This document shows positions 605-63,800 of a DNA stretch of 64,000 bases, piece by piece. Source of the stretch: a virus (taxonomy: Duplodnaviria; Heunggongvirae; Uroviricota; Caudoviricetes); IMG/VR virus record IMGVR_UViG_3300009702_000014, positions 62,445 through 126,444 of that record. The stretch is one strand, 5' to 3'. The notes beneath the pieces are model-generated. The model had not been told where the DNA came from. It searched no databases and saw nothing but the letters and a program-made list of their open reading frames with translations. Numbering within the stretch: position 1 is the stretch's first letter; the number at the start of each line of letters is the position of its first letter. The translations under genes and the position numbers were made by a program.

Positions 605-689
605 TGGTGGGAGAGGTAGGATTCGAACCTACTAAGCCTAAGGCATCCGGGTTACAGCCGGACACAACTCGCCATCGTTGCCGCTCTCC
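605..689 (-). tRNA. tRNA-Tyr(GTA), type II with long variable arm, CCA encoded
   Basis: reverse complement gives acceptor GGGAGAG/CTCTCCC, anticodon stem TCCGG/CCGGA with loop CTGTAAC, T-arm GGTTCGAATCC, 3' ACCA. Confidence 0.6.
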
Positions 690-826
690 CATAAATTGAG
701 TATCCTTTTTCGTCGGGCGGCGATACTCGTTCCGCTCCCCGCAACCCGAACCTGTCCTCGGTCAAGCGTCTATCCGCTTTGTCTGCCGTTGCTATTCACG
801 GCTGTCAAACCTATGGTGGGGCTGTA

Positions 827-909
827 TGGTGGACGAAGAGGGACTTGAACCCACGGCCTACGCGCTACGCGCTGCCAGCGCGTTGCTCTTCCAACTGAGC
901 TATTCGCCC
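827..909 (-). tRNA. tRNA-Ala(GGC) carrying a 7-nt tandem duplication (CGCGTAG x2) after the anticodon stem; possibly non-functional
   Basis: acceptor GGGCGAA/TTCGTCC with G3:U70; D-arm GCTCAGTTGGAAGAGC; anticodon loop CTGGCAG; T-loop TTCAAGT; CCA encoded; removing one CGCGTAG copy leaves a canonical 76-nt tRNA. Confidence 0.5.
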
Positions 910-973
910 ATACACACACCATAGTATATCATGTAATGAGAAGCATGTGAATATTTAGCTTCCTCTTTCCCGA

Positions 974-1049
974 TGGTAGCGTAGCACGGATTCGAACCGA
1001 GATTACCAGCTTGAAGGGCTGGTGTCCTGTACCCTTAGACGACTACGCC
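974..1049 (-). tRNA. tRNA-Glu(TTC)
   Basis: reverse complement GGCGTAGTCGTCTAAGGGTACAGGACACCAGCCCTTCAAGCTGGTAATCTCGGTTCGAATCCGTGCTACGCTACCA; resembles bacterial tRNA-Glu as recalled; anticodon loop CCTTCAA. Confidence 0.65.
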
Positions 1050-1259
1050 TTAATTGTACTGCTTGTCGATTTGTTCCTCGGAAAGCACCATGTAGCGCCC
1101 TTCATGCTCTCCCTCTGTAATTCGGCACTTATGATAGGGCTTTCCAAAATGACGCGTTAGAACAATCGCTACTCCACGTGCTTCTTTCTCTGTGTAGAGC
1201 TTTTCATTGACTACTGACACGGTACGGTTCATTTTTTTCCTTCTCCAAGCGTGGCGCAA
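1050..1259 (-). CDS. hypothetical small protein
   Basis: 69-aa ORF between tRNA genes. Confidence 0.3.
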   Translation of the reverse strand: MRHAWRRKKMNRTVSVVNEKLYTEKEARGVAIVLTRHFGKPYHKCRITEGEHEGRYMVLSEEQIDKQYN

Positions 1260-1431
1260 TAAAGTGTTTGACTCGATAGTTTAGATTGTCGGCCAGAGCA
1301 ATAAGCTCTTGGTCTGTAAGAATAGTGAATGGAGCGCCCCAACCGTTTCTTTTGACTATACCATCAAAACGAATTACATGTTCATCAGGTTCCCGACTAG
1401 AAACTACTGTAACTTTTGGCCCCATGCTCAA
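1204..1431 (-). CDS. hypothetical small protein
   Basis: 75-aa ORF between tRNA genes. Confidence 0.3.
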   Translation of the reverse strand: MSMGPKVTVVSSREPDEHVIRFDGIVKRNGWGAPFTILTDQELIALADNLNYRVKHFIAPRLEKEKNEPYRVSSQ

Positions 1432-1447
1432 ACTCCTTACTTAAAAA

Positions 1448-1523
1448 TGGTGTACCAGAAGGGACTCCAACCCCTAACCCCCCGAATGCAAATCGGGCGC
1501 TCTCGCAGTTGAGCTACTGGCAC
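1448..1523 (-). tRNA. tRNA-Ala(TGC)
   Basis: acceptor GTGCCAG/CTGGTAC with G3:U70; anticodon stem CCCGA/TCGGG with loop TTTGCAT; T-loop TTGGAGT; CCA encoded. Confidence 0.65.
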
Positions 1524-1527
1524 GTGA

Positions 1528-1598
1528 TGGTGGAGGCCGAGGGAATCGAACCCTCCAAAGAATGTCTGCATAACATTCAAGCTATTCCTAAAGCCCCC
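1528..1598 (-). tRNA. atypical tRNA-like element (71 nt, reduced D-arm); isotype unresolved
   Basis: canonical T-arm GAGGGTTCGATTCCCTC and ACCA 3' end; acceptor GGGGGCT/GGCCTCC; anticodon region GAATGTTATGCAGACATTC folds ambiguously; D-arm only about 3 bp. Confidence 0.35.
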
Positions 1599-1672
1599 AC
1601 AGTTATAGGAAACAGGGTGTGCTAGCCTATGGTCTAACTTCCTATTTCCATCTGTCGCAGATAATGTCTGCG

Positions 1673-1758
1673 TGGCGGAAGGTGAGGGAATCGAACCCCC
1701 GAGGCTGTTACGCCCAACTGTTTTCAAGACAGGTTCCTCGACCAACCGGGCACCTTCC
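1673..1758 (-). tRNA. tRNA-Ser(TGA), type II
   Basis: acceptor GGAAGGT/ACCTTCC; anticodon loop CTTGAAA; long variable arm; T-arm GGGGGTTCGATTCCCTC; CCA encoded; 86 nt. Confidence 0.6.
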
Positions 1759-1761
1759 ATA

Positions 1762-1836
1762 TGGTCCTCCCGGTAGGAATCGAACCCACGCTGTTCCGAT
1801 TAAAAGTCGGTTGCCTAACCATTCGGCCACGGGAGG
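1762..1836 (-). tRNA. tRNA-Lys(TTT)
   Basis: acceptor CCTCCCG/CGGGAGG; anticodon region ACCGACTTTTAATCGGA resembles bacterial tRNA-Lys; T-loop TTCGATT; ACCA. Confidence 0.65.
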
Positions 1837-1968
1837 ATAAATTGTGTAGTTGGCACACGGTATTTGGACGGTTACTTAGCAGCAACGCCACACTATTATT
1901 TCCGTGCTATCCCCATTGGCCCAGGGTACCTTTCGGCCGCCAACCGTCAACAATATAACAGATACAAA

Positions 1969-1983
1969 TATGAGAAGGATTAG
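1969..1983 (-). promoter_or_regulatory. copy of recurrent minus-strand motif CTAATCCTTCTCATA (putative phage promoter), upstream of a tRNA sub-cluster
   Basis: plus strand reads TATGAGAAGGATTAG; same 15-mer family recurs at least 14 times in the window. Confidence 0.5.
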
Positions 1984-1987
1984 AACT

Positions 1988-2064
1988 TGGTGCTCCGGGA
2001 GGGATTTGAACCCGCATCTGGTCTGATTAAGAATCAGCCGCTTTGCCAATTAAGCTACCGAAGC
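1988..2064 (-). tRNA. tRNA-Lys(CTT) (tentative anticodon)
   Basis: acceptor GCTTCGG/CCGGAGC; D-arm GCTTAATTGGCAAAGC; anticodon loop TTCTTAA by position counting; T-loop TTCAAAT; CCA encoded. Confidence 0.5.
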
Positions 2065-2068
2065 ATAA

Positions 2069-2185
2069 GGCGGAGGGAAGGATTCGAACCTCTCACGACC
2101 GGAACCGTGCCACTTCCAACTGGCCCTCACGCATGGGAGAGTTTACCCCGACTTAAGCACCTTTGTCAACCCCTTTCAAGAAAGT
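2069..2185 (-). tRNA. tRNA-like element or elements with a T-arm signature; structure unresolved
   Basis: contains GGATTCGAACC (T-loop on minus strand) and a D-arm-like GCCAGTTGGAAGTGGC, but no convincing acceptor pairing could be found by hand over the 117-nt interval. Confidence 0.25.
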
Positions 2186-2260
2186 TGGCTCTAGGGGCAG
2201 GATTCGAACCTACAACTAACAGGTTAACAGCCTGTCGTGTTACCATTACACCACCCTAGA
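2186..2260 (-). tRNA. tRNA-Asn(GTT)
   Basis: acceptor TCTAGGG/CCCTAGA; anticodon stem ACAGG/CCTGT with loop CTGTTAA; T-arm GTAGGTTCGAATCCTGC; GCCA 3' end. Confidence 0.7.
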
Positions 2261-2269
2261 ATACATGTT

Positions 2270-2640
2270 TTAATGAAGCTGTTTATACTCCTTGCTCGGA
2301 ATTGTAGTTTGTCGTAAGTTATAAACACTATTCCAAGTAGCTAGGACTGCTAAGAGCAGAATAATAAGGGAAACAAAAGAAGTGCTTCCTTTCAGGAGAG
2401 GCAATAAATAGATTAGACCAATAAACGAATAAATACCTATATGAGCGACCTCCTTTGCTTTACGGCCCCATTTCACAAAAAAAGAAAGGGTATCAAAAAC
2501 TACGTTAAATAAGAAAAGGCCAATTATTACTATAAAATAGTGTTCCGCTATAAAGTCCGAGGAACCAACAAGCCAAAGGATTACCAAAGCTACGAGACTA
2601 AAATAAATAATATCGTTAAAGATACGTTTTACGTAAGGCA
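2270..2640 (-). CDS. small integral membrane protein
   Basis: ORF 2270..2698 is strongly hydrophobic with several predicted TM segments; start trimmed to internal Met (MPYVKR) because the upstream part overlaps tRNA-Asp. Confidence 0.4.
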
Positions 2641-2662
2641 TACATAATATCCTCTCAAATAT

Positions 2663-2740
2663 TGGCGGCCTAGACGGGATTCGAACCCGCAACCTCACCG
2701 GCTGACAACCGGGTGTTCAACACCGTAGAACTACTAAGCC
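2663..2740 (-). tRNA. tRNA-Asp(GTC)
   Basis: acceptor GGCTTAG/CTAGGCC; anticodon loop TTGTCAG; T-arm GCGGGTTCGAATCCCGT; GCCA 3' end. Confidence 0.65.
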
Positions 2741-2765
2741 ATACCTAAAGTATATGATAGCAGGA

Positions 2766-2780
2766 AATGAGAAATATTAG
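2766..2780 (-). promoter_or_regulatory. copy of recurrent motif (minus strand CTAATATTTCTCATT) upstream of tRNA-Asp
   Basis: plus strand reads AATGAGAAATATTAG. Confidence 0.45.
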
Positions 2781-2810
2781 ATTGTCAATGTACTTGTCCT
2801 AGAAGGACTT

Positions 2811-2884
2811 TGGCGCGGGAGGAGGGATTCGAACCCATTCACAGAGGAGTTTTGGGGACTCCCTGGCACAACCTACGCTCTCCC
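2811..2884 (-). tRNA. degenerate tRNA-like element (possible tRNA-Trp(CCA) remnant)
   Basis: T-loop TTCGAAT and GCGCCA 3' end; good anticodon-like hairpin GGAGT-CCCCAAA-ACTCC; acceptor and T-stems pair poorly and the D region is shortened. Confidence 0.3.
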
Positions 2885-3328
2885 ACATGTGCGGATGTGT
2901 TTTCTAATAGCATTATCCGAAACGCCTAACTCTCTACCCAAAGCAGAATACCCGATTTCTTCGGCTCGGGCTGTGAGGTATTCCACAGGAGGCCAGTCTA
3001 TCTTTTTACGGCGAAAATCGTACCAAGTTTTTATATAATTAGGTTTCACTCGGTAACGAGTGTCTAAGCATATATAAGCGCCGTCCATACGTTTCACAAG
3101 AGGATTTTTCTTGTTTCTATGGTACCGCGCATGGTGTCGCTGACTTAGAAAAACCATCAAATTACTTGGGACGTTGTGCGCTCGATTTTCGTCCATATGA
3201 TGCACAACTTCATAATTTTTTAATGGCCTCCCAAGCATCCTCTCAGCGACCAATACATGTTCCCATACACATCCGTTGGGGCGTGCTCTAGGGTGGGCGG
3301 GGCGATAAATTTCAACATAGTTATTCAT
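2873..3328 (-). CDS. HNH homing-type endonuclease
   Basis: HNH motif VVHHMDENRAHNVPSNLMVFLSQRHHARYH; start trimmed to internal Met (MNNYVEIY) because upstream ORF sequence overlaps tRNA-Gly; embedded in the tRNA array. Confidence 0.6.
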   Translation of the reverse strand: MNNYVEIYRPAHPRARPNGCVWEHVLVAERMLGRPLKNYEVVHHMDENRAHNVPSNLMVFLSQRHHARYHRNKKNPLVKRMDGAYICLDTRYRVKPNYIKTWYDFRRKKIDWPPVEYLTARAEEIGYSALGRELGVSDNAIRKHIRTCGRA

Positions 3329-3374
3329 TTTACTGCCCTTTCCGTGTGGAGCGGCATAGGAGAATCGACAAATT

Positions 3375-3450
3375 TGGAGCGGACGGTGAGATTCGAACTC
3401 ACGAAATATCGGTTTGGAGGACCGACGCCTTACCACTTGGCCACGTCCGC
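3375..3450 (-). tRNA. tRNA-Gly(TCC)
   Basis: acceptor GCGGACG/CGTCCGC; anticodon stem TCGGT/ACCGA with loop CCTCCAA; T-arm GGTGAGTTCGAATCTCACC; TCCA 3' end resembles bacterial tRNA-Gly(UCC). Confidence 0.7.
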
Positions 3451-3716
3451 ATAAATTTTACCGCAAGCCGGGGTGGAGGGCCGTATGCATCCGGTTATCC
3501 TCTCACGCAGGGAGCGGTAAGTCCCCTACGCACAGCAAAGCCCCGACCAGTAACTCCCCAGCATCGTAACACTGAGGGTGCCACAGAATAAATCTGTGGG
3601 GGAGAAAATACGGGCAGCTACTCAGGAAACCGACCTTTTGGGTCCGGGGGTGCTTTTTGCGTCACTCTGTCGCCGGGTTTGCCCAACCCTATTATCCTCT
3701 CGGCGTGACGGCGGTA

Positions 3717-3806
3717 TGGCGGTGGGAATAGGATTCGAACCTATGGACCTCTTTCGAAATCACGTACTTTCCAGGCACGCCCAATAAACCGCTCTGGCAT
3801 CCCACC
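3717..3806 (-). tRNA. tRNA-Ser(GGA), type II
   Basis: acceptor GGTGGGA/TCCCACC; anticodon stem CGTGC/GTACG with loop CTGGAAA; long variable arm; T-arm ATAGGTTCGAATCCTAT; GCCA; 90 nt. Confidence 0.6.
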
Positions 3807-3853
3807 ATGTTCAAACTTGCATTCATTACATTTGAACAGTATAATATACTTAT

Positions 3854-4399
3854 ATGAAAACTACATTAGAAAACGACATTCTTACTTTAAGAAAAGAAGG
3901 AAAAACTTATTCTCAAATTCAAAAAGAACTAGGCTGTTCCAGAGGCACTATTTCTTATTATGTTGGTAAAGGACAGAAAGATAAAACACGTCAACGAAAT
4001 AAAAAAGTTAGAGACGAAAATCCAGTTAGTCGAAAGGTAGCTGAATTTAAATCAAGAGGAAAAGCACGAAAGAATTTTGTTTCTAAAACAAGAGATTTCC
4101 AACGTCGTGACGGTTTATATCTAGCATCTACTCCTGAAACCGTTGATTTTACGTATCAAGACGTGCTAGATAAAATTGGCCCTAATCCTACATGTTATTT
4201 AACAGGACTGCCTATAGATTTATATGACCCGTCCTCTTACCATTTTGACCATATTATCCCTGCATCACAAGGTGGTAATAATTCTCTAGAAAACCTTGGA
4301 ATCGCTTTAAAATCCGCAAACAATGCAAAAGACTCATTACTCTTAGGAGAATTTTTAGACCTGTGTGAAGCAGTTTTGAAACACCACGGTAGAATATAA
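3854..4399 (+). CDS. HNH homing-type endonuclease with N-terminal HTH
   Basis: HNH motif HFDHIIPASQGGNNSLENLGIALKSANNAK; the only plus-strand gene inside the minus-strand tRNA array. Confidence 0.65.
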   Translation: MKTTLENDILTLRKEGKTYSQIQKELGCSRGTISYYVGKGQKDKTRQRNKKVRDENPVSRKVAEFKSRGKARKNFVSKTRDFQRRDGLYLASTPETVDFTYQDVLDKIGPNPTCYLTGLPIDLYDPSSYHFDHIIPASQGGNNSLENLGIALKSANNAKDSLLLGEFLDLCEAVLKHHGRI

Positions 4400-4401
4400 A
4401 T

Positions 4402-4488
4402 TGGCGGAAGGGGTGGGAATCGAACCCACAGGCCCATTGAGCCCCGAATTTAGCAAATTCGGCAGAGTAGCCAATCTCAATCCCTTCC
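4402..4488 (-). tRNA. tRNA-Ser(GCT), type II
   Basis: acceptor GGAAGGG/CCCTTCC; anticodon stem CGAAT/ATTCG with loop TTGCTAA; long variable arm; T-arm GTGGGTTCGATTCCCAC; GCCA. Confidence 0.65.
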
Positions 4489-12307: not shown

Positions 12308-12722
12308 AGCCCTTAGAACGCCGGGAAACTCTAACATTTCGTTTCATATATAAAAATTTGGAGGCGTCGGCATCGAAGCCGAGTCCAGAATAATGTCCAA
12401 ATAGCCTTCTACGTGTGTAGCACCTTACTCAAGTGCGGAGTCTTACGGGGTTTTGTCTGTTATACATTTGCAGTTATTGTGCGCTAACTGCGGGCGGGGG
12501 CTGCTTTACGCAGCGAGTGGCATACCGTAGCTACCATAGGTAGCAGGGATATAACCGTAATCATTAACGTTGTTAGTTAATTATTTGGGCTTGTTAAGGG
12601 GCCAGCCCACCCCTACACGCGGGTTATTCTTCTTTTGCCCTGTCGAAACCTTGTCGCCCCCATAATTCCTCGGGGTATCCAGGCTCATTGCTTCTTAATA
12701 ATACCACATAATCTACAAGGCG

Positions 12723-16048: not shown

Positions 16049-16768
16049 TTAGGTCCCCTTCAAAACTAAGACCGGCTTTAAACGTTTTTCGACAATTGCT
16101 ACTTCGGCATCAACCAATGCTCCAATTACTTCATCTACGTCCTTATAGGCTCCGTGAGATTCGTCCAAGGGCACGTTCTGGAAGTTACCCATAACGTTTC
16201 TTGTTTTAAACTCAGCGTTAATAGTGCCCTGGTCGAGCATTTCCTTTGCCTTACCACGGCTCAGCACGCGGCCAGCACCGTGAGACACAGACTCCCCGAG
16301 TTTCGGAGCCATTTTACCAGGACGGAGCACGTAGCTTCCAGTTGCCATGCTACCAGGAACTAGTAACGGAATACCATCGTTATCGTAGGCTGGTGTAGCC
16401 CCCTTACGGCCTACGAATTTTTCGTTGCGCTGCTCAATGAAGTTGTGCGGAATGTGCCCGATAAAATTAAATTGAGCCTCTGGAAGCACTTCCTGGATTG
16501 CCTCTGCGACCGAGTGCTGCACAATATAGTGGTTATGAGTCGTCCATTCAAGCATAGCCTGTTGGAAGGCGAAGTAGAAACGCCCCAAACTACTATCCGC
16601 AGGAACGTAGAGCAACTTATTCTTAGGTGCTGCTCCCCACTTCGTCAATTCCGCTTCAATAGCTTCGTCAAAGAATTTTGCACCCTTTGCTCCAATTCCA
16701 CGGCTACCGAAATGCGACATAACGAAAACATTTCCATCTTCATCTTCCTGTACTTCTACAAAGTGATT
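16049..16768 (-). CDS. rtcB: RtcB RNA ligase, exon 2 (C-terminal part)
   Basis: in-frame extension above the annotated Met reads NHFVEVQEDEDGNVFVMSHFGSRGIG; contains RtcB GSRG, PGSMATGSYV and SHGAGR motifs; upstream stop at 16784. Confidence 0.7.
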   Translation of the reverse strand, partial: NHFVEVQEDEDGNVFVMSHFGSRGIGAKGAKFFDEAIEAELTKWGAAPKNKLLYVPADSSLGRFYFAFQQAMLEWTTHNHYIVQHSVAEAIQEVLPEAQFNFIGHIPHNFIEQRNEKFVGRKGATPAYDNDGIPLLVPGSMATGSYVLRPGKMAPKLGESVSHGAGRVLSRGKAKEMLDQGTINAEFKTRNVMGNFQNVPLDESHGAYKDVDEVIGALVDAEVAIVEKRLKPVLVLKGT

Positions 16769-17836
16769 CAGTGTTGTTACTACTTACGCGAATTGGATAA
16801 AACCTACCGACCAAGGTTTGTTTTCTCCATATCTACATTGTATACTACATTTTGGTGAGATTGATGAGACTAGACTTTTCCAAACCAGAATTTTCATATA
16901 TGCTCGGATTACTACACGCAGACGGACATTATGACAAACAACATACCAATGGCAAAATAACACTTGAAGCCAGTATGAAAGATGTGGATATAGCCCATAA
17001 ATTATCAAAAGTGCTTCCTGGAAAATCTACAATCACGTATAGGAACCGGCATACTAATTACTCAAAAGACTCTCAAACCTTTGTGTGGAGCATATATGAC
17101 AAAGACATTCGTACTCAGTTCCCTATGCCTTCTGGCAAAAAATCCCACCTAATTGCCCCTCCAGATATCCCTTACTCCAAAGTAGACTATTGGAGAGGTA
17201 TCATAGATGGTGATGGTTCTCTTGGATTTACCAGTCAAGGACTTCCTTTTATTAGTTTAGTAACTCAAAGTGAGGCTCTAAAGGAAACCTACATAGATTT
17301 TCTTGAACCAATTCTAGGATATCGCAAGCGGCTATCACGTAATACACGGGATAATGTGTATAATATTGTAATATTCAATGAGGCGGCTCAGTCACTAGCA
17401 AATAAACTTTACTATCTTGACTGTCTTGCTATTGCTAGAAAGTACGAAGTGGCGAATCAGCTTAAACAATGGGAGCGTTCTATCCCGCAGCGGCCCCGCT
17501 CCCTACCGTGGGAGCAATGGGAAGAACAATATTTACAGACACACACCCTTGATGAAGCTATCAAATACTTATCTCATAGAACGAAAAAGGCTATTAAACT
17601 AAAACATTATCGCATAAGCGGGTAGGTCATTTCTGCCTACCTCAACATGTTTCCATGCTGCTCAGACTATCCCTTCATCCCGTAGGATGCGCCTATTATA
17701 GTCGTTGCACGTTCCCTCGCGGGCTTCGCTCAGGGTTGCCGTATAGCACCTAAAGGTCGGTGGCGCTACTTAGGGTTCCCCTGAATTTAAGGCGTTTTTA
17801 TCTTCCCTGTTACCAGGAAAGGGAGGCAGTCAGTTT
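16769..17836 (-). mobile_element. intervening sequence in rtcB (probable group I intron, about 1068 nt) carrying a LAGLIDADG endonuclease ORF in antisense orientation
   Basis: splits the invariant RtcB motif GGG|NHF; exon 1 ends with U (codon GGT), the insert ends with G (..CTG) before AAT CAC TTT; GC-rich structured flanks at 17626-17836. Confidence 0.55.
16852..17625 (+). CDS. LAGLIDADG homing endonuclease (two motifs)
   Basis: YMLGLLHADGH and WRGIIDGDGSLGF; plus strand, i.e. antisense to rtcB. Confidence 0.75.
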   Translation: MVRLMRLDFSKPEFSYMLGLLHADGHYDKQHTNGKITLEASMKDVDIAHKLSKVLPGKSTITYRNRHTNYSKDSQTFVWSIYDKDIRTQFPMPSGKKSHLIAPPDIPYSKVDYWRGIIDGDGSLGFTSQGLPFISLVTQSEALKETYIDFLEPILGYRKRLSRNTRDNVYNIVIFNEAAQSLANKLYYLDCLAIARKYEVANQLKQWERSIPQRPRSLPWEQWEEQYLQTHTLDEAIKYLSHRTKKAIKLKHYRISG

Positions 17837-18430
17837 ACCTCCACCAATGCTACCAACTTGTCCAAGCTGCGCCTGAGTCATGAGCTTGCTAAGCAAGTCC
17901 CACAAACTCTTCCATTCGTGAGTACGAGCGTGTTTATACAGCACGTACTCGCTGTTTTTGACCCAGGTCTTTTCGTGGCGAAAATGCCCCTGCACAATCC
18001 ACTTAAATTCGTCTATCGTTATGGGACGGCTCTGCTTTGGGACACGGGCGTGTCCTGCACCAACGCTAATACGACGGCCCATTTCTCCAAGAATGCGGCT
18101 ACGAAGTCCCTTGTCGGCCTGAGAAAGTCCTTTAATCCCATTAACTCGCATCAAAGACACAGAGCAGGCGGGGTCAGGCCCTACAACATCAGGGTAAAGG
18201 TGCGTACTAGACTCGACTACGCTCCCAATCGGGAAACCATAGCCCGTGTGCATGTCAGGCGTAACAGTGAAGCGTTCCACCCCCGGCAACTCCATAGAAT
18301 TGCGAAGTTGCTCCAATGCAGAGGATTCGACTGCCCCCATGAGGGCATCAGAGAGAAGCATGGTTGCCCATACGTTTCCGTGGCGCATTTTATAAATATT
18401 GCCAGCTTTAAACGGCTGAAATTCATTCAT
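17837..18430 (-). CDS. rtcB: RtcB RNA ligase, exon 1 (N-terminal part)
   Basis: PDMHTGYGFPIGSV and GSIGGG (start of GGGNHF motif); the ORF reads through into the insert (KLTASLSW*). Confidence 0.7.
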
Positions 18431-20416: not shown

Positions 20417-20972
20417 TCACAAAGCGTTCCAGCATTTCCTGGTCGCCCAACTCGTATACAGTTAGAAGGCTACTGAGAGAGTTAACTGTGAACTCCTTAC
20501 TACTAATTGTCTTGCGGAGAATATGACGAATCCTGTCCGTTAGGAATTGGATAGCCCTCTTATGGCTGACCTCTAGCTGTTTTACAGGAATATCTAGAAA
20601 TTCTACATCAAGACTGACGGAGGGAGCATGAATTCTCAAATCTCTAAATTTAATTCTTAGGCAAAGCCTTTCCTCCATGTCTGTAACAATTGAGAATTGT
20701 CCATCTAAGTAGTGCCATTCTCCAGGACCAGTGACAAAAGCCACATCAATCGCTTTAGGCCACACGGAGTCTTCAAACCAGCAACCCATATCACCCTGAA
20801 AATTTTCGATACGAAACTCAGCGTCGTAAATCTCTTGTAAAAGTTCCTCAGTAGGCTTCTCAATAGGGAATGACATAATTATCCTTTCAAAAATAGAGTT
20901 GAGTTGAGTTGGGTCGTAAGCCGGGTTCTGTTTCAATCTAGCATCTATCTTGTCTTGGGTTATTATTCCCAA
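20406..20972 (-). CDS. hypothetical protein
   Basis: 188-aa ORF. Confidence 0.45.
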   Translation of the reverse strand: MGIITQDKIDARLKQNPAYDPTQLNSIFERIIMSFPIEKPTEELLQEIYDAEFRIENFQGDMGCWFEDSVWPKAIDVAFVTGPGEWHYLDGQFSIVTDMEERLCLRIKFRDLRIHAPSVSLDVEFLDIPVKQLEVSHKRAIQFLTDRIRHILRKTISSKEFTVNSLSSLLTVYELGDQEMLERFVIGA

Positions 20973-21275
20973 GCTCTTTGCGGCAATTCTGCCTTGCTGC
21001 CACGTAAGGATTGCCTAGCCATAGGTTATTAGTCCTATGCTGGTGAGTTTTTACCTCACCGCTTTCACCTACCGCTGGTACGCGGTCTCTGTTCGCTGTT
21101 GCTCTTGCTCGCACGTCACCGTGGTCGGGCGTTACCCGATACGCTTTTTATGGCAGCCCGGACTTTCCTCCCCGTAGGGCGCTAGAATGCCCAACTCAAC
21201 TTCGCTCAGTCTACTCTACCATACTATGAGAATAGTGAAAAGTCCCCGACGTATGCCGAGGACTTTATAGGTTCT

Positions 21276-29717: not shown

Positions 29718-31274
29718 ATGAACAAACTAAACACTACCAGACAACCAAGAACCCGTTATGTTAACACCTACGAGGGCGGTCGCGGCCTCAAGGTCGGCGC
29801 TGAGGAAGAATTGGCGTTTCTAACCTTCGCTAGCAATTTCCATGACAAGTTTTATGAAACCGGTAAGGCTACTCTAAAGCGTATGGAGGCTCTTGTTAAC
29901 CAGTCGCGCCCGGAGTTCGTCCAACAGCTAGCCCGTGTTGCTCGTCAAGAGTTCAACATGCGTGCTACCCCAGCAGCTTTGACGGCTTTCTATACCTTGA
30001 AGCATGGACAGCCAGATAATGATAAGCTTATCACTGACGCTTTCTTCCGTGGCGACGAAATCGGTGACTACCTAGCCGTAGTCGAATCTGCCTCCCGTAA
30101 GGGTAAGGTTATTCCTTCTGCCGTTCGTTTTGCTCGTCGCGTTTTGCAGGAACAGCTAAATGAGCGTAAGGCTCTGCGTTATGCTCGTTCTGGACGTGCC
30201 TGGAGCCTAGCTAAGATTATTCGCCTAAGCCACGCCCGCATGGGTGCTACCCCAGCCCAGGAAGCTCTCTTTAATTTCGTGCTCGCATGGAATGGTGAAG
30301 GTAGCTTGACAAAGGCGTGGGAAACGCTGCCCTCCGCACAGCGCAAGTTGCTTCCGACTATCAAGCAGGCTGTCGAAGGTGGAGACGCCGACGGCAGCAT
30401 CAGTTGGGAACGTACTATTTCTGCTGCTGGTGCAGAGAAGGACTGGACTAGGGTTGTAGATAAGATGGGCTACATGGCCCTTCTACGTAACCTTCGTAAC
30501 TTCCTCCAGGACGTTCCGGCTAAGAATACGGAATTCTGGAACACGGTTACTCGTAGGCTAGCTGACGAGGAAGAAGTCTTGGCTTCTAAGCAATTCCCAT
30601 TCCGTTTCTACTCTGCATACAAGGCTATTAAGGATATGCAGCACGCTAAGACTCACGCGGTCATTGATGCGCTGTCTACTGCCTTGGACTACTCGGCACG
30701 CAATCTCCCGGAATTCCCGGAAAAGACCCTTATCGTTATCGACGCTTCCGGTTCTATGAGTAGTGGTTTGCTTTCCGACAAGTCTGAAATGTCTTATCGT
30801 GAAGTCGGGGAAGTTTTGGGTGCAGCTCTATTCACTACGACAGGTGCAGATGTTGTACACTTCGGTACGACTGCGTACAAGCACAACGGCCTCGACGTAA
30901 ACAGTGGTGTTCTAAACACCCTTAATGAGTTTGCTACGGTCAACCACAGCACGGTAAGGGGCATCTATATGGGTCGGGGTGGCCGCAAGATGGTCGGCCA
31001 CAGCACAGAGCTTGGTTCCATTCAAAGCGTTGTAAATGTTAACGACTATGATGCTATCATCGTTTTCTCTGACATGCAGCTAGCTGATAGTGCCAGCAGC
31101 ACCCTTGGTAACTACAAGGGTAAGCTCTACACTGTCAATATGGCGGGCTATGAGGCCCAGCTAGACCTACGTAGCAACGATGTTGTTGCTGTCGGGGGTT
31201 GGAGCGAAGCTGTTCTCCGGCTTATGTCGCTTATCACACGTAACCAGCTTATCAAGTACATCCTGGACTACTAG
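29718..31274 (+). CDS. rsr: Ro60-like RNA-binding protein (TROVE domain plus C-terminal vWA domain)
   Basis: vWA MIDAS TLIVIDASGSMSS; 518 aa with N-terminal region resembling TROVE as recalled; strong RBS AAAGGAGA. Confidence 0.6.
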   Translation: MNKLNTTRQPRTRYVNTYEGGRGLKVGAEEELAFLTFASNFHDKFYETGKATLKRMEALVNQSRPEFVQQLARVARQEFNMRATPAALTAFYTLKHGQPDNDKLITDAFFRGDEIGDYLAVVESASRKGKVIPSAVRFARRVLQEQLNERKALRYARSGRAWSLAKIIRLSHARMGATPAQEALFNFVLAWNGEGSLTKAWETLPSAQRKLLPTIKQAVEGGDADGSISWERTISAAGAEKDWTRVVDKMGYMALLRNLRNFLQDVPAKNTEFWNTVTRRLADEEEVLASKQFPFRFYSAYKAIKDMQHAKTHAVIDALSTALDYSARNLPEFPEKTLIVIDASGSMSSGLLSDKSEMSYREVGEVLGAALFTTTGADVVHFGTTAYKHNGLDVNSGVLNTLNEFATVNHSTVRGIYMGRGGRKMVGHSTELGSIQSVVNVNDYDAIIVFSDMQLADSASSTLGNYKGKLYTVNMAGYEAQLDLRSNDVVAVGGWSEAVLRLMSLITRNQLIKYILDY

Positions 31275-60828: not shown

Positions 60829-63800
60829 TTACCCGCAGTTTGAAGCTCCGCAGTCACGGCACAAAGTACAGCCTGATTCGAAGATTACATTTTCACCACC
60901 ACAAACAGAGCATGTAACTCCTTTAATCTCGGTACCGTTCTTAATATGAGATGAAAGGAACTTCTTGATAGCAAAGATTAGGTCTGTAACATAGACCTCT
61001 GGAACGCGGTCCAAAGCTGCCACAATGTTGGTCAATGGAATGTTATGACGGAGACACATGGAAACAAACTTAGCAACACGCATGTATCCCCCGTTGCCTT
61101 TGGTTTTTTCTTTTTGTACTTCAATCAAGTCAGGGTCAATCTCAAAGCGTTCAAGCAAGTCTACGAGTACTTTAACTGCTCCGTTTGCTTCACGAATATC
61201 CCCCGTGTTGTTCGTTTGAATCCAAAGTGCGATGGGGAATATTCTCTCGGAATCCTCGGGCAGATAAGAGAAATTCATGTAGAACTTCTGCCCTTCTCGC
61301 TTAATAATATGCATATCCCCATTTATAAACACATCAGGAAGCTTCAAGTCCTTTTTAATAACATCTGGCTGTTTAGTCTCTTTGGATTCCTCGACTTGTG
61401 AGAGGACTGCTTCCATTGAACCGGCTCTATAGGTTGTGAATCCATTTAGCCCGCGCTTCCATGCCTCCATATACAGATTCTTAAACTCTTCATAGTCGTA
61501 GTTATTTGGCACATTTAGAGTTTTGCTCGTGCTTTGGTTCATATTGCTTTGAACTATCTCTTGTATATTGATATGGTCCATAACGTTCAAGTCGTTGGTT
61601 GTAACCATGTAATATTCGACGGGCAACGAAAATAAACCTTCTTGCACTTCATAGTCCTCCGGGTAATTATCCATAACCCATTGAACTCCATAGTCCCTTA
61701 CAGTTTCGGTAATGCATAAACCTCGATTGTGTGGTTCATAAAGCCAGTTCGTTCCGTTATATTCTCCGGCCCACGCTACGGAGTCTCCCTGCTTTGTCTC
61801 CTTCAATATATCCTTAATATTCTCTTTTGTTAATCCCTTGGGCCAAGTATCAGCGATGTAGGTACGCTGGTATTCAGTCATAAACACGGGCTCAATACCA
61901 TTCGAAACAATATCACAGATAACCGACGAATTACCTAGTGGAGGATTCGTGGTTGTCTTACCGTTACGGACACCATTCTTACGGATTAAGTCCTTGGTTT
62001 CCTCGGAAATCTTTGTGAACTCGGTGAACCATTGAGTCGTTAGGAAGTTTTCATTGTAGGCGGGGAATGGACCCTTTTCGGCTGCCAACTCCGCAGACGT
62101 TCTCCAGGTCAATTCTTCCTTTAGGGCGGTGACTCTTTCAGTAAATTCATGCGCGTCTTTGGAATTATATGCAATACCCATCATATACAAGGCGGACCCC
62201 AAACCATTGATGCCCATACCATATTGACGCACATTTTCTGTGGCCCAATTATATTGAGGTAACGCATTGTTTGTTAAGTCATTAACATTATCCAAAGCCC
62301 GCGCAAAGATAGGAATATCTTTCTTTAACTGGTCCCAGTCAAAACTCCTATCATCCAAAACGTACTGAGTCAAGTTGATGGACCCCAAAAGACATACGGT
62401 ACTCGTAAGTGGGTTGCCACCAATCTCACCACACGGGTTTGTGGCGTTCAATGGACCAAGGTAAGCCAACGGATTATTGCGCTGCATACTGTCATAGAAC
62501 AAAATACCCGGTTCTGCACGGTTGTATGTAGACTTCATAATTAGGTCATACAACTCACGGGCCTTAATACGCTTGTAAACCTTACCGTCAAAGTGCAAAT
62601 CGTAGAAGTCGTCAGCTTCAACGGCTTCCATAAACTTGTTGTCCACGATAACAGACATATTGAATTTTGTTAGACGGCCCGGTTCCTGCTTCGCTCGTAC
62701 ATACTCTTCGATATCCGGGTGCCAAATAGGCAGAACAGCCATCTGAGCACCTTTACGAGCTTGCTTCTTCATTTTAATAGAAGCATCTTTACCCATTTCA
62801 TCTAAATAATTCTTAATCGTATCTTGATATCCGTCATTGTTACCCATGACAATAACTGTCGCTACTTTATCCCAGATATCCATATAATGAATCACACCAG
62901 GGTGAGTGATACCTATACTTTTAATAACAGAGCCACGCGGCCGAATAAAACCAAAATTAATACCATACCCTCCCTCCGACTTGAGGGTTTCTGCCTGTTC
63001 CAGCAGAGTGAGCATGATATTCTTTAGATTGTCACCAGTATCGTCTGTATGGTAAGTAACATCAATAGTTTTGTCCGTATTTGGCACAGGGCGTTGGTAG
63101 GAGATGGTCGCGTTTTTTACAGGCCCATTAATGAAGCAGTTGCCACTAAAAATACCTCCTGAAAGGGTAAAAGTTGCAGTTTTTGGCACAACCGCACAAT
63201 ACACTTCTTCCTCACGCAATAGTGGAGTAATGCTAACAACCTTAAACTTTAGGTTACGAGCGTTGTATAGAATTAGTCTTTTGAGTAAGCTACTACGCTT
63301 ACCCAAATTAGTTTCTTCTGAGTGGTAATCCGTTCTATATCCAGTTGCAATGTATCCCGCAAAGGGAGCATTCTCCTGCAACCATCGAAGGCCCTTTAGG
63401 TTGGTTGAAGAAAGCTCTACCCGTTCGTCACTGAGTATGCTCCCGTCAGCAGCTAACCAGCCTTTGATAAAGCCTGAAATGTAATTAGGGTCAGTATCCG
63501 TAGGAAGCTCTTTGAAGTTTATAGGGCTTCTAACGTAGGTGATTGCATCAACACCACCCCAGTCAACACCTTTAACATTGTCAAACATGGAAGAGTACTG
63601 TAAATCTTTTTGACCGAAAAACCTTACTTCAAACTTATAGTCTCCGTTTGCGTAGCTGTAAGCCCTCCAGCCACCACCAAAAACAAACCCGTGTTGGAAT
63701 CCGTAGCGGTAGTTCTCCGAAGTAGTATCTACCTCTGCCACCTGAGCAGGAACAACATCTCCTACACGCAACGCTGTCGTTTCAGTTCCATCCGAGAGTA

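Follow-up and report, generated by a model that had tools for sequence, protein, structure and literature searches.

What is the insert that interrupts rtcB in this phage DNA, and why does the endonuclease gene within it run against its host gene? The DNA analysed here, called the window throughout, is a stretch of 64,000 nucleotides (nt) of the IMG/VR virus record IMGVR_UViG_3300009702_000014 (positions 62,445 to 126,444 of that record), and positions are those of the window unless a contig or phage is named. The product of rtcB is an RNA 3′-phosphate/5′-OH ligase, and the insertion lies between the GGG and NHF codons, beside a metal-binding histidine. Among mobile elements the group I intron with a homing endonuclease is a textbook case, and debate continues over how intron and endonuclease come to be associated. 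From the sequence, we consider it highly probable that the insert is a mobile group I intron which self-splices from the rtcB pre-mRNA, and that the LAGLIDADG endonuclease encoded on the opposite strand cuts intron-less rtcB. The class of mechanism is familiar; what is new is rtcB as the host gene and site, together with a rare, inherited inversion of the endonuclease gene.

The two pieces of rtcB, when joined, encode one continuous protein

rtcB exon 1: 17837 to 18430, minus strand; 198 codons, ending ...GSIGGG; its final base, U at 17837, is the 5′ splice site
rtcB exon 2: 16049 to 16768, minus strand; 239 codons and the stop; begins NHFVEVQ and includes SHGAGR

The upstream open reading frame (ORF; 17810-18430, minus strand) ends ...QLGQVGSIGGG and then reads through KLTASLSW, eight codons into the insert, to a stop codon TAA at 17812-17810. 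The downstream frame, from 16768 on the same strand, reads NHFVEVQEDEDGNVFVMSHFGSRG and continues through SHGAGR to its stop at 16049. Both ends had been described in the original prediction and were found as described, as were the boundaries: exon 1 ends with T at 17837, and the insert, estimated then at about 1.07 kb and measured here at 1068 nt (17836-16769), ends with G at 16769 directly before AAT CAC TTT. Joining 18430-17837 to 16768-16049 yields a site that reads ATTGGTGGAGGT followed by AATCACTTTGTAGAAG (the intron-less target site is ATTGGTGGAGGTAATCACTTTGT) and an RtcB of 437 amino acids (aa). Removal of the insert thus restores the frame and rebuilds the GGGNHF motif, as foreseen. 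The Pfam RtcB profile (PF01139) is divided at the same point with neither gap nor overlap, positions 1-153 falling in exon 1 and 154-426 in exon 2.

The joined protein was then compared with intact RtcB, a check that had been suggested with the prediction. Residues 35-436 align with P. horikoshii RtcB (PDB 4dwr and 1uc2), both motifs included, and the alignment is continuous across the exon junction (GSIGGGNHFVEVQ in the joined protein, GSLGSGNHFLEVQ in P. horikoshii). Identity to an uninterrupted RtcB of 438 aa (P0001) is 83%. Exon 2 has no start codon at NHF. Its first methionine codon comes 16 codons after NHF (16720), so that a piece begun there would be without NHF, as had been pointed out; in the alignment with P. 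horikoshii RtcB this residue falls on a conserved methionine of RtcB and is therefore not an acquired start.

The insert contains a complete group I ribozyme

group I intron: 16769 to 17836, minus strand; 1068 nt, from AAACUGACU... to ...AACACUG with the terminal G at 16769; same boundaries in the introns of contig L003 and of Bacillus phage BSP36 (see below)
ribozyme core P1-P9: 17643 to 17846, minus strand; from Rfam RF00028 and a helix check
P1: 17842-17837/17827-17822, minus strand; GGAGGU/GCCUCC, with a U.G pair at the 5′ splice site
P2: 17821-17802, minus strand; 8-bp helix with a GUAA loop
P3: 17794-17790/17694-17690, minus strand
P4: 17784-17779/17735-17730, minus strand
P5 extension hairpin: 17743 to 17769, minus strand; loop ACCGACC at 17761-17755, complementary to GGUCGGU of the 3′ hairpin
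P7: 17703-17698/17670-17665, minus strand; GACUAU/AUAGUC
P8: 17689-17676, minus strand
P9: 17660-17643, minus strand; GAAA loop
P9.1 hairpin: 17621 to 17641, minus strand; 6-bp stem and 9-nt loop CAGAAAUGA; the last ribozyme element before the endonuclease cassette
3′ peripheral hairpin (“P9.2”): 16794 to 16829, minus strand; between the cassette and the 3′ splice site; loop GGUCGGU at 16812-16806

The original prediction had proposed a covariance-model scan of the insert and had taken the lack of a P3-P9 core as an argument against an intron. The scan was positive: RF00028 matched 17846-17643 on the minus strand with 68.4 bits (E = 1.2e-16; gathering score 50) over the full model, 1-253, P3-P9 core included, and this was the sole RF00028 match in the whole 64-kb window. 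Direct inspection and a scripted helix check showed that P6 is present as well. The U and terminal G at the boundaries, thought at the outset to fit the group I convention, are accompanied by the U.G pair of P1 and by a P10 pairing, in which AAUCA of exon 2 faces the guide UGACU just 5′ of the P1 strand and four of the five pairs form. The core from P1 to P9.1 is confined to the first ~216 nt of the intron, and the UAA that ends the exon 1 frame (17812-17810) overlaps the P2 loop.

Every helix from P1 to P9.1 pairs in the introns of the window, L003 and BSP36. Compensatory changes among the three were found in P2, P3, P4, the P5 extension, P8, P9 and P9.1, and P7 is invariant. In the P5 extension the stem covaries between the window (GUAGCGCC/GGUGCUAU) and L003 (GUAGAGU/ACUCUAU) around an unchanged loop motif ACCGACC. 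The 3′ hairpin is predicted in the folds of both, and its outer stem also covaries (UGGA/UCCA vs GAAGGC/GCCUUU). Together, the full-length RF00028 match, the splice-site U.G, the terminal G, P1 and P10 and the covarying helices support the assignment of the insert to the group I introns. We also offer an idea, as such and not as a result: the loops ACCGACC and GGUCGGU might form a loop-loop contact that would bring the 3′ splice site to the core.

A LAGLIDADG endonuclease gene is antisense within the intron

LAGLIDADG homing endonuclease gene: 16864 to 17625, plus strand; 253 aa, antisense to rtcB; alternative start TTG at 16852
candidate -35, TTGTTT: 16818-16823, plus strand; identical in L003
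candidate -10, TATACT: 16841-16846, plus strand; after a 17-nt spacer; identical in L003
candidate Shine-Dalgarno sequence, GGTGAG: 16854-16859, plus strand; identical in L003

A double-motif LAGLIDADG ORF had been predicted at 16852..17625 on the strand opposite to rtcB. Its identity stands: it matches Pfam LAGLIDADG_3 (PF14528) with 34.3 bits (cut-off 22.5) and has the motifs LGLLHADG (D20) and RGIIDGDG (D115/D117). Its start was revised, since translation likely begins at ATG 16864, with GGTGAG upstream, rather than at TTG 16852. Both motifs and their acidic residues are conserved in 29 homologues and are invariant or nearly so in 27, the invariant catalytic residues D20, D115/D117, K93 and R111 are retained, and the family shares a conserved helix-rich C-terminal extension.

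The cassette occupies ~800 nt between P9.1 and the conserved 3′ hairpin, and the gene ends with a TAG (17623-17625) that falls within the 3′ arm of P9.1, in L003 as well as in the window. Being the reverse complement of the endonuclease gene, the cassette is a non-coding loop within the intron RNA. Upstream of the gene, the two hexamers are the same in both introns across a spacer that matches at 6 of 17 positions, counted by hand on the alignment. Conserved hexamers across a diverged spacer are the pattern of a functional promoter, and we infer from these two sequences a candidate one.

The 3′ hairpin also contains a conserved sequence, UUGGUCGGUAGGU (16806-16818, minus strand), that resembles the end of exon 1, UUGGUGGAGGU (17849-17837, minus strand), with two inserted bases. 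It could be what is left of a duplicated half of the target site or, since it overlaps the putative endonuclease promoter, an operator by which that promoter is autoregulated.

Two relatives differ in the presence of the intron

The same order of rtcB N-terminal part, antisense LAGLIDADG gene and rtcB C-terminal part was found in a ~209-kb phage contig recovered from several samples (L003-L006). The L003 intron scores 75.4 bits with RF00028 and has the same boundaries as that of the window. Its endonuclease, 56% identical to that of the window, has the same position and orientation; 13 contigs from several samples carry this ORF intact. At the nucleotide level the window and L003 are most alike in the ribozyme core (83% identity), against 64% for the endonuclease gene and 60% and 68% for the two exons.

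The closest RtcB (P0001) is encoded on contig L001 by an uninterrupted gene, followed by RNA-ligase and SNF2-helicase genes as in L003; in the window a SNF2-like ORF lies downstream of rtcB. The intron-less site of L001 is ATTGGTGGAGGA followed by AACCACTTTGT. At 4363-4371 of L001 it has GGA AAC where the joined exons of the window (17845-17837 and 16768-16760) have GGT AAT; the codons on either side of the insertion point each differ by one synonymous base. With an A at position -1, the U.G pair of P1 would be lost; the change may affect cleavage too, and so be a possible form of resistance.

Bacillus phages carry the intron with a sense endonuclease gene

Homologues of the endonuclease, ~40% identical, are present in the Bacillus phages BSP36, Goe17, Goe20, Goe27 and 278BB001. 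In these phages rtcB is split at the same codon boundary, between LGGG and NHFIE, by an intron with the same P1, and the BSP36 intron scores 72.6 bits with RF00028 and has a P9.1 with the same CAGAAAUGA loop. These Herelleviridae phages (BSP36, MH707436; vB_BsuM-Goe27, OM728304; Goe17, Goe20 and 278BB001) share with the window the site, P1, a homologous core, P9.1 and a homologous LAGLIDADG endonuclease placed after P9.1. They differ in the endonuclease gene, which shares the strand of rtcB and reaches to within 7 nt of the 3′ splice site; that of the window is inverted, its start and candidate promoter face the 3′ splice site, and the window intron has an additional 3′ hairpin. The hosts of the element also differ, ~150-160-kb Bacillus phages on one side and an uncultured ~203-kb phage on the other, and blastn of the region against the INPHARED phages gave no match; the link to the Bacillus phages emerged at the protein level only.

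In the GenBank records of BSP36 and Goe27 (L017, MH707436 119000-121325; L018, OM728304 118524-121240) the split rtcB is annotated as separate genes, labelled “tRNA processing protein 1”, “homing endonuclease” and “tRNA processing protein 2”, or as hypothetical proteins and a short rtcB, and the group I intron is unannotated. Goe17, Goe20 and 278BB001 are probably annotated likewise. Two more sub-threshold RF00028 matches (30.1 and 28.9 bits) were seen in Goe27 upstream of the main intron (L018 1547-1873 and 2244-2440, plus strand), near which rtcB exon 1 appears broken into extra pieces; Goe27 rtcB may have more than one intron.

The endonuclease family occurs in several arrangements around rtcB

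A census of 160 loci from IMG/VR and metagenomes, together with the loci described above, gave ~120 with a close family member. Classes were assigned by tblastn with two RtcB queries, and the counts include some duplicates between collections:

rtcB split at the same site, endonuclease sense: 27 loci
intact rtcB and free-standing endonuclease, same strand: 25 loci
intact rtcB and free-standing endonuclease, opposite strand: 11 loci
no rtcB within 3 kb: 45 loci
antisense endonuclease inside split rtcB: the window and L003-L006 only

The family is thus associated with rtcB in ~75 of the 120 loci, and with exactly this site in ~30. The expected rarity of the antisense layout was confirmed, about 20-27 sense loci standing against the window and one other lineage. 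In a neighbour-joining tree, made with no bootstrap and with its deep branches unresolved, the window and L003 enzymes are sisters, and intron-borne and free-standing members are interleaved elsewhere.

Intron structure was compared across the family with nhmmer, with explicit checks of the helices and with a search for hairpins. This last recovered the P9.1 signature (6-bp stem, 9-nt loop NAGAAAUNN, AGAAAU) at ~20 different loci with an rtcB intron, on the rtcB strand in each case. All sense loci have it immediately 5′ of the endonuclease gene; in the window and L003 it is at the 3′ end of the gene, on the other strand. Among 16 P9.1 hairpins, which are 100% paired by construction because they were selected for pairing, all six pairs show two-sided changes (34 double-change cells). 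P1, seen in most loci of this search, shows covariation with the end of exon 1 in L019 (GGTGGT/GCCACC). The guide GAUU or GACU pairs with AAUC of exon 2 in ~20 loci, most of which have GAUU, a perfect match.

Exact-pattern scans of IMG/VR yielded no third antisense lineage: the P8-J8/7 motif returned six introns in genes other than rtcB, the 16-mer of the 3′ hairpin gave 11 matches that were taken as chance, and the exon-P1 pattern had no match. Endonuclease homologues without a nearby rtcB were considered as intron-borne and rejected, no group I core being found there. Several such members adjoin tRNA arrays (L024, L026, L121, L169) or ROOL RNA (L165 1392-1995; L048 5982-6543), and the family seems tied to RNA-related loci generally. 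Other RtcB homologues are broken up in different ways: P0074 and P0097 carry intein domains (PF14890), and a 616-aa product at L010 5001-6851 aligns with RtcB by tblastn only in several disjoint stretches. It seems that selfish elements of several kinds have repeatedly targeted rtcB.

Proposed mechanism and alternatives

We propose the following sequence of events. The rtcB gene would be transcribed from the minus strand, and ribosomes leaving exon 1 would halt 8 codons into the intron. The guide would pair with the end of exon 1 (GGAGGU/GCCUCC) and the start of exon 2 (AAUCA/UGACU), and two transesterifications would produce a ligated mRNA for the intact 437-aa RtcB. Expression of the endonuclease would be from the plus strand, by means of a promoter and ribosome-binding site of its own in the 3′ part of the intron, and the enzyme would cut the intron-less rtcB of co-infecting relatives between GGT and AAT; repair of the cut allele would then copy the intron with its endonuclease gene. 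Since homologous introns at the same site carry a sense gene, the antisense layout is explained most simply if the cassette was inverted in place or invaded again in reverse orientation, an event that would have taken place in the common ancestor of the window and L003 phages and been kept since. Judged on sequence comparison, the layout is a rare, inherited variant of a widespread rtcB-homing element. Possibly, though we would put this forward with real reserve, it is also the first described phage or bacterial group I intron with an antisense homing endonuclease and an intron-embedded promoter, within an rtcB-homing family of three states (free-standing, sense in the intron and antisense in the intron) that the searched papers do not recognise, and with a read-through antisense RNA that may regulate splicing.

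Several observations weigh against this proposal. At the level of the ribozyme, P10 of the window includes an A.C mismatch, the 3′ hairpin and tail show no gain in fold stability over shuffled sequence (z = -0.8), and the putative loop-loop contact has no covariation behind it, since both loop motifs are invariant. In the census, 15 sense loci fell under the gathering score of RF00028, and the 10 re-scanned at E <= 0.1 were also unmatched; the intron status of these loci rests on the split gene, P1, P10, P9.1 and nhmmer. A nhmmer profile of the window and BSP36 cores matches several of the missed loci, whose cores are readable by eye, and the Rfam model evidently misses the rtcB-intron sub-family. 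As to expression, a sigma-70 consensus scan did not call the candidate promoter, because the -35 element matches at just 3 of 6 positions, and the candidate draws on two sequences, those of the window and L003. No terminator was found on the plus strand after the endonuclease gene, so that the transcript would continue antisense through the ribozyme core and exon 1, and could interfere with splicing. No convincing inverted repeats that would account for an inversion flank the cassette.

The best-surviving alternative accepts the intron and makes the orientation itself functional: the read-through RNA over the core and exon 1 would time or throttle the splicing and expression of rtcB. The missing terminator fits, and the minus strand encodes 11 of the 12 window ORFs of at least 330 aa, all 12 tRNAs, the transfer-messenger RNA (tmRNA) and the RNase P RNA, a bias by which the endonuclease is transcribed head-on. 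The arrangement is also conserved across a deep divergence, and in cyanophage S-PM2 an antisense RNA reportedly links psbA and a homing endonuclease gene. However, common descent of a neutral inversion explains the conservation in two lineages equally well, and relatives with a sense gene greatly outnumber those with an antisense one, a sign that the antisense layout brings no general advantage. We regard such a function as unlikely.

It is also distinctly improbable, in our view, that the intron splices while its antisense ORF has ceased to serve homing, being either a decaying passenger or a trans-acting maturase or DNA-binding regulator. Homing endonuclease genes often degenerate after fixation and some LAGLIDADG proteins are maturases; here the expression signals are weak by consensus, and the conserved helix-rich extension would suit such a role. 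On the other side, two lineages whose proteins differ at 44% of residues have both kept an intact ORF and its catalytic residues, and the intron-less allele of a close relative (L001) indicates that opportunities for homing exist. Finally, that a free-standing endonuclease has split rtcB into two separately translated, reassembling polypeptides, without splicing, is a very remote prospect, raised already in the original prediction: gene callers do give two RtcB fragments and an endonuclease, a methionine codon occurs 16 codons into exon 2 and the same family is often free-standing beside rtcB, but the break, at which a complete conserved ribozyme sits exactly, separates two neighbouring codons of an invariant motif and is bounded by U and G, no start is present at NHF, and a fragment begun at 16720, itself a conserved RtcB methionine, would be without NHFVEVQ and its metal-binding histidine.

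Comparison with known systems

Self-splicing with homing of intron-less rtcB, the reading that we prefer, has partial precedents. The closest in topology are nuclear ribosomal DNA (rDNA) introns of myxomycetes. In Didymium iridis, I-DirII is encoded antisense in a group I intron and has its own RNA polymerase II (Pol II) promoter (PMC3073962); in D. squamulosum, the I-DsqI gene lies in P9.2 of Dsq.L2066, and related L2066 introns carry sense or antisense genes (PMC9548176). The statement that endonuclease genes of group I introns are normally sense, made at the outset, therefore holds within the rtcB census and requires qualification for these rDNA introns. As in the window, the opposite-strand gene is in a peripheral element of the P9 region, with an internal promoter (here a candidate). 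Only this topology is shared, because the rDNA introns are of group IE, in eukaryotic rRNA genes, with His-Cys box enzymes, Pol II transcription, polyadenylation and spliceosomal introns, whereas the window intron is in a protein-coding phage gene and has a LAGLIDADG enzyme and bacterial-type signals.

Among phages, the nrdD (sunY) intron of T4, with I-TevII, has its core at the 5′ end and its ORF looped out in the P9 region with its own promoter. The window intron resembles it in the position of the core, the ORF looped out at a distance from it, the separate promoter (here a candidate) and the early stop of exon 1 translation; the T4 intron endonucleases differ in being sense, of the GIY-YIG or HNH type, and in host genes of nucleotide metabolism. 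The interrupted nrdA gene of Aeromonas phage Aeh1 is said to be in pieces from insertion of the endonuclease gene mobE. There, too, an endonuclease gene breaks up the gene of a conserved enzyme, which is annotated as two fragments, but no ribozyme is present and the fragments are translated separately, in contrast to the complete group I ribozyme of the window. General context on phage introns with an ORF 3′ of the core is given in PMC2988022, which also cites the Aeh1 case.

In collaborative homing, the psbA intron of cyanophage S-PM2 is paired with the free-standing endonuclease F-CphI (cited in PMC3428280). The rtcB family is likewise found free-standing beside intact rtcB (36 loci, in either orientation) and inside an rtcB intron, a distribution predicted by the model in which free-standing endonuclease genes invade introns; F-CphI is encoded beside its gene, whereas the window endonuclease is within the intron boundaries. 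Our literature search, which covered open-access papers only, found none that describes a group I intron in rtcB and none that reports a phage or bacterial intron with an antisense endonuclease gene; this absence is weak evidence. A word search of a review of bacterial group I introns (PMC3984707) gave no mention of antisense or opposite orientation or of an own promoter.

In phages, a single endonuclease family, with a single target site and a single intron family, shows every conceivable arrangement. These can be compared directly, and they make a clean system for the study of how endonuclease genes and introns become associated. The antisense layout uncouples translation of the endonuclease from folding of the ribozyme, where transcription and translation are coupled, and it would create convergent transcription over the ribozyme. 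If true, the inversion is a natural dissection of the element, in which P9.1 and the 3′ hairpin, by keeping their strand, are assigned to the ribozyme and told apart from what belongs to the cassette. In several Bacillus phages and many metagenomic phages rtcB is mis-annotated as two or three genes. An RNA-repair ligase, likely directed against tRNA-cleaving defences of the host, would need RNA self-splicing for its own expression.

Phage context of the locus

The window belongs to a ~203-kb jumbo phage, and its genes include rIIA, rIIB, tail fibres, DNA ligase and ribonucleotide reductase. A compact bacterial class A RNase P RNA of ~300 nt lies near rtcB in the window (20901-21198, minus strand), L001 (586-883) and L003 (6966-7288), with scores of 173, 167.5 and 127.7 bits (gathering score 100); a literature search found no description of a phage-borne RNase P RNA. 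The window also contains an RNA-maintenance module of 12 tRNA genes, a tmRNA (90.8 bits) and a Ro/TROVE-like RNA-binding protein (phrog_850):

RNA-maintenance module: 605-4488 (minus strand), 12358-12661 (minus strand) and 29718-31274 (plus strand)

The association of this module with RtcB suggests a counter-measure to host defences that cleave tRNA or mRNA. Beside rtcB, L003 encodes a TROVE protein and an RNA ligase (PF09414), and L001 an RNA ligase.

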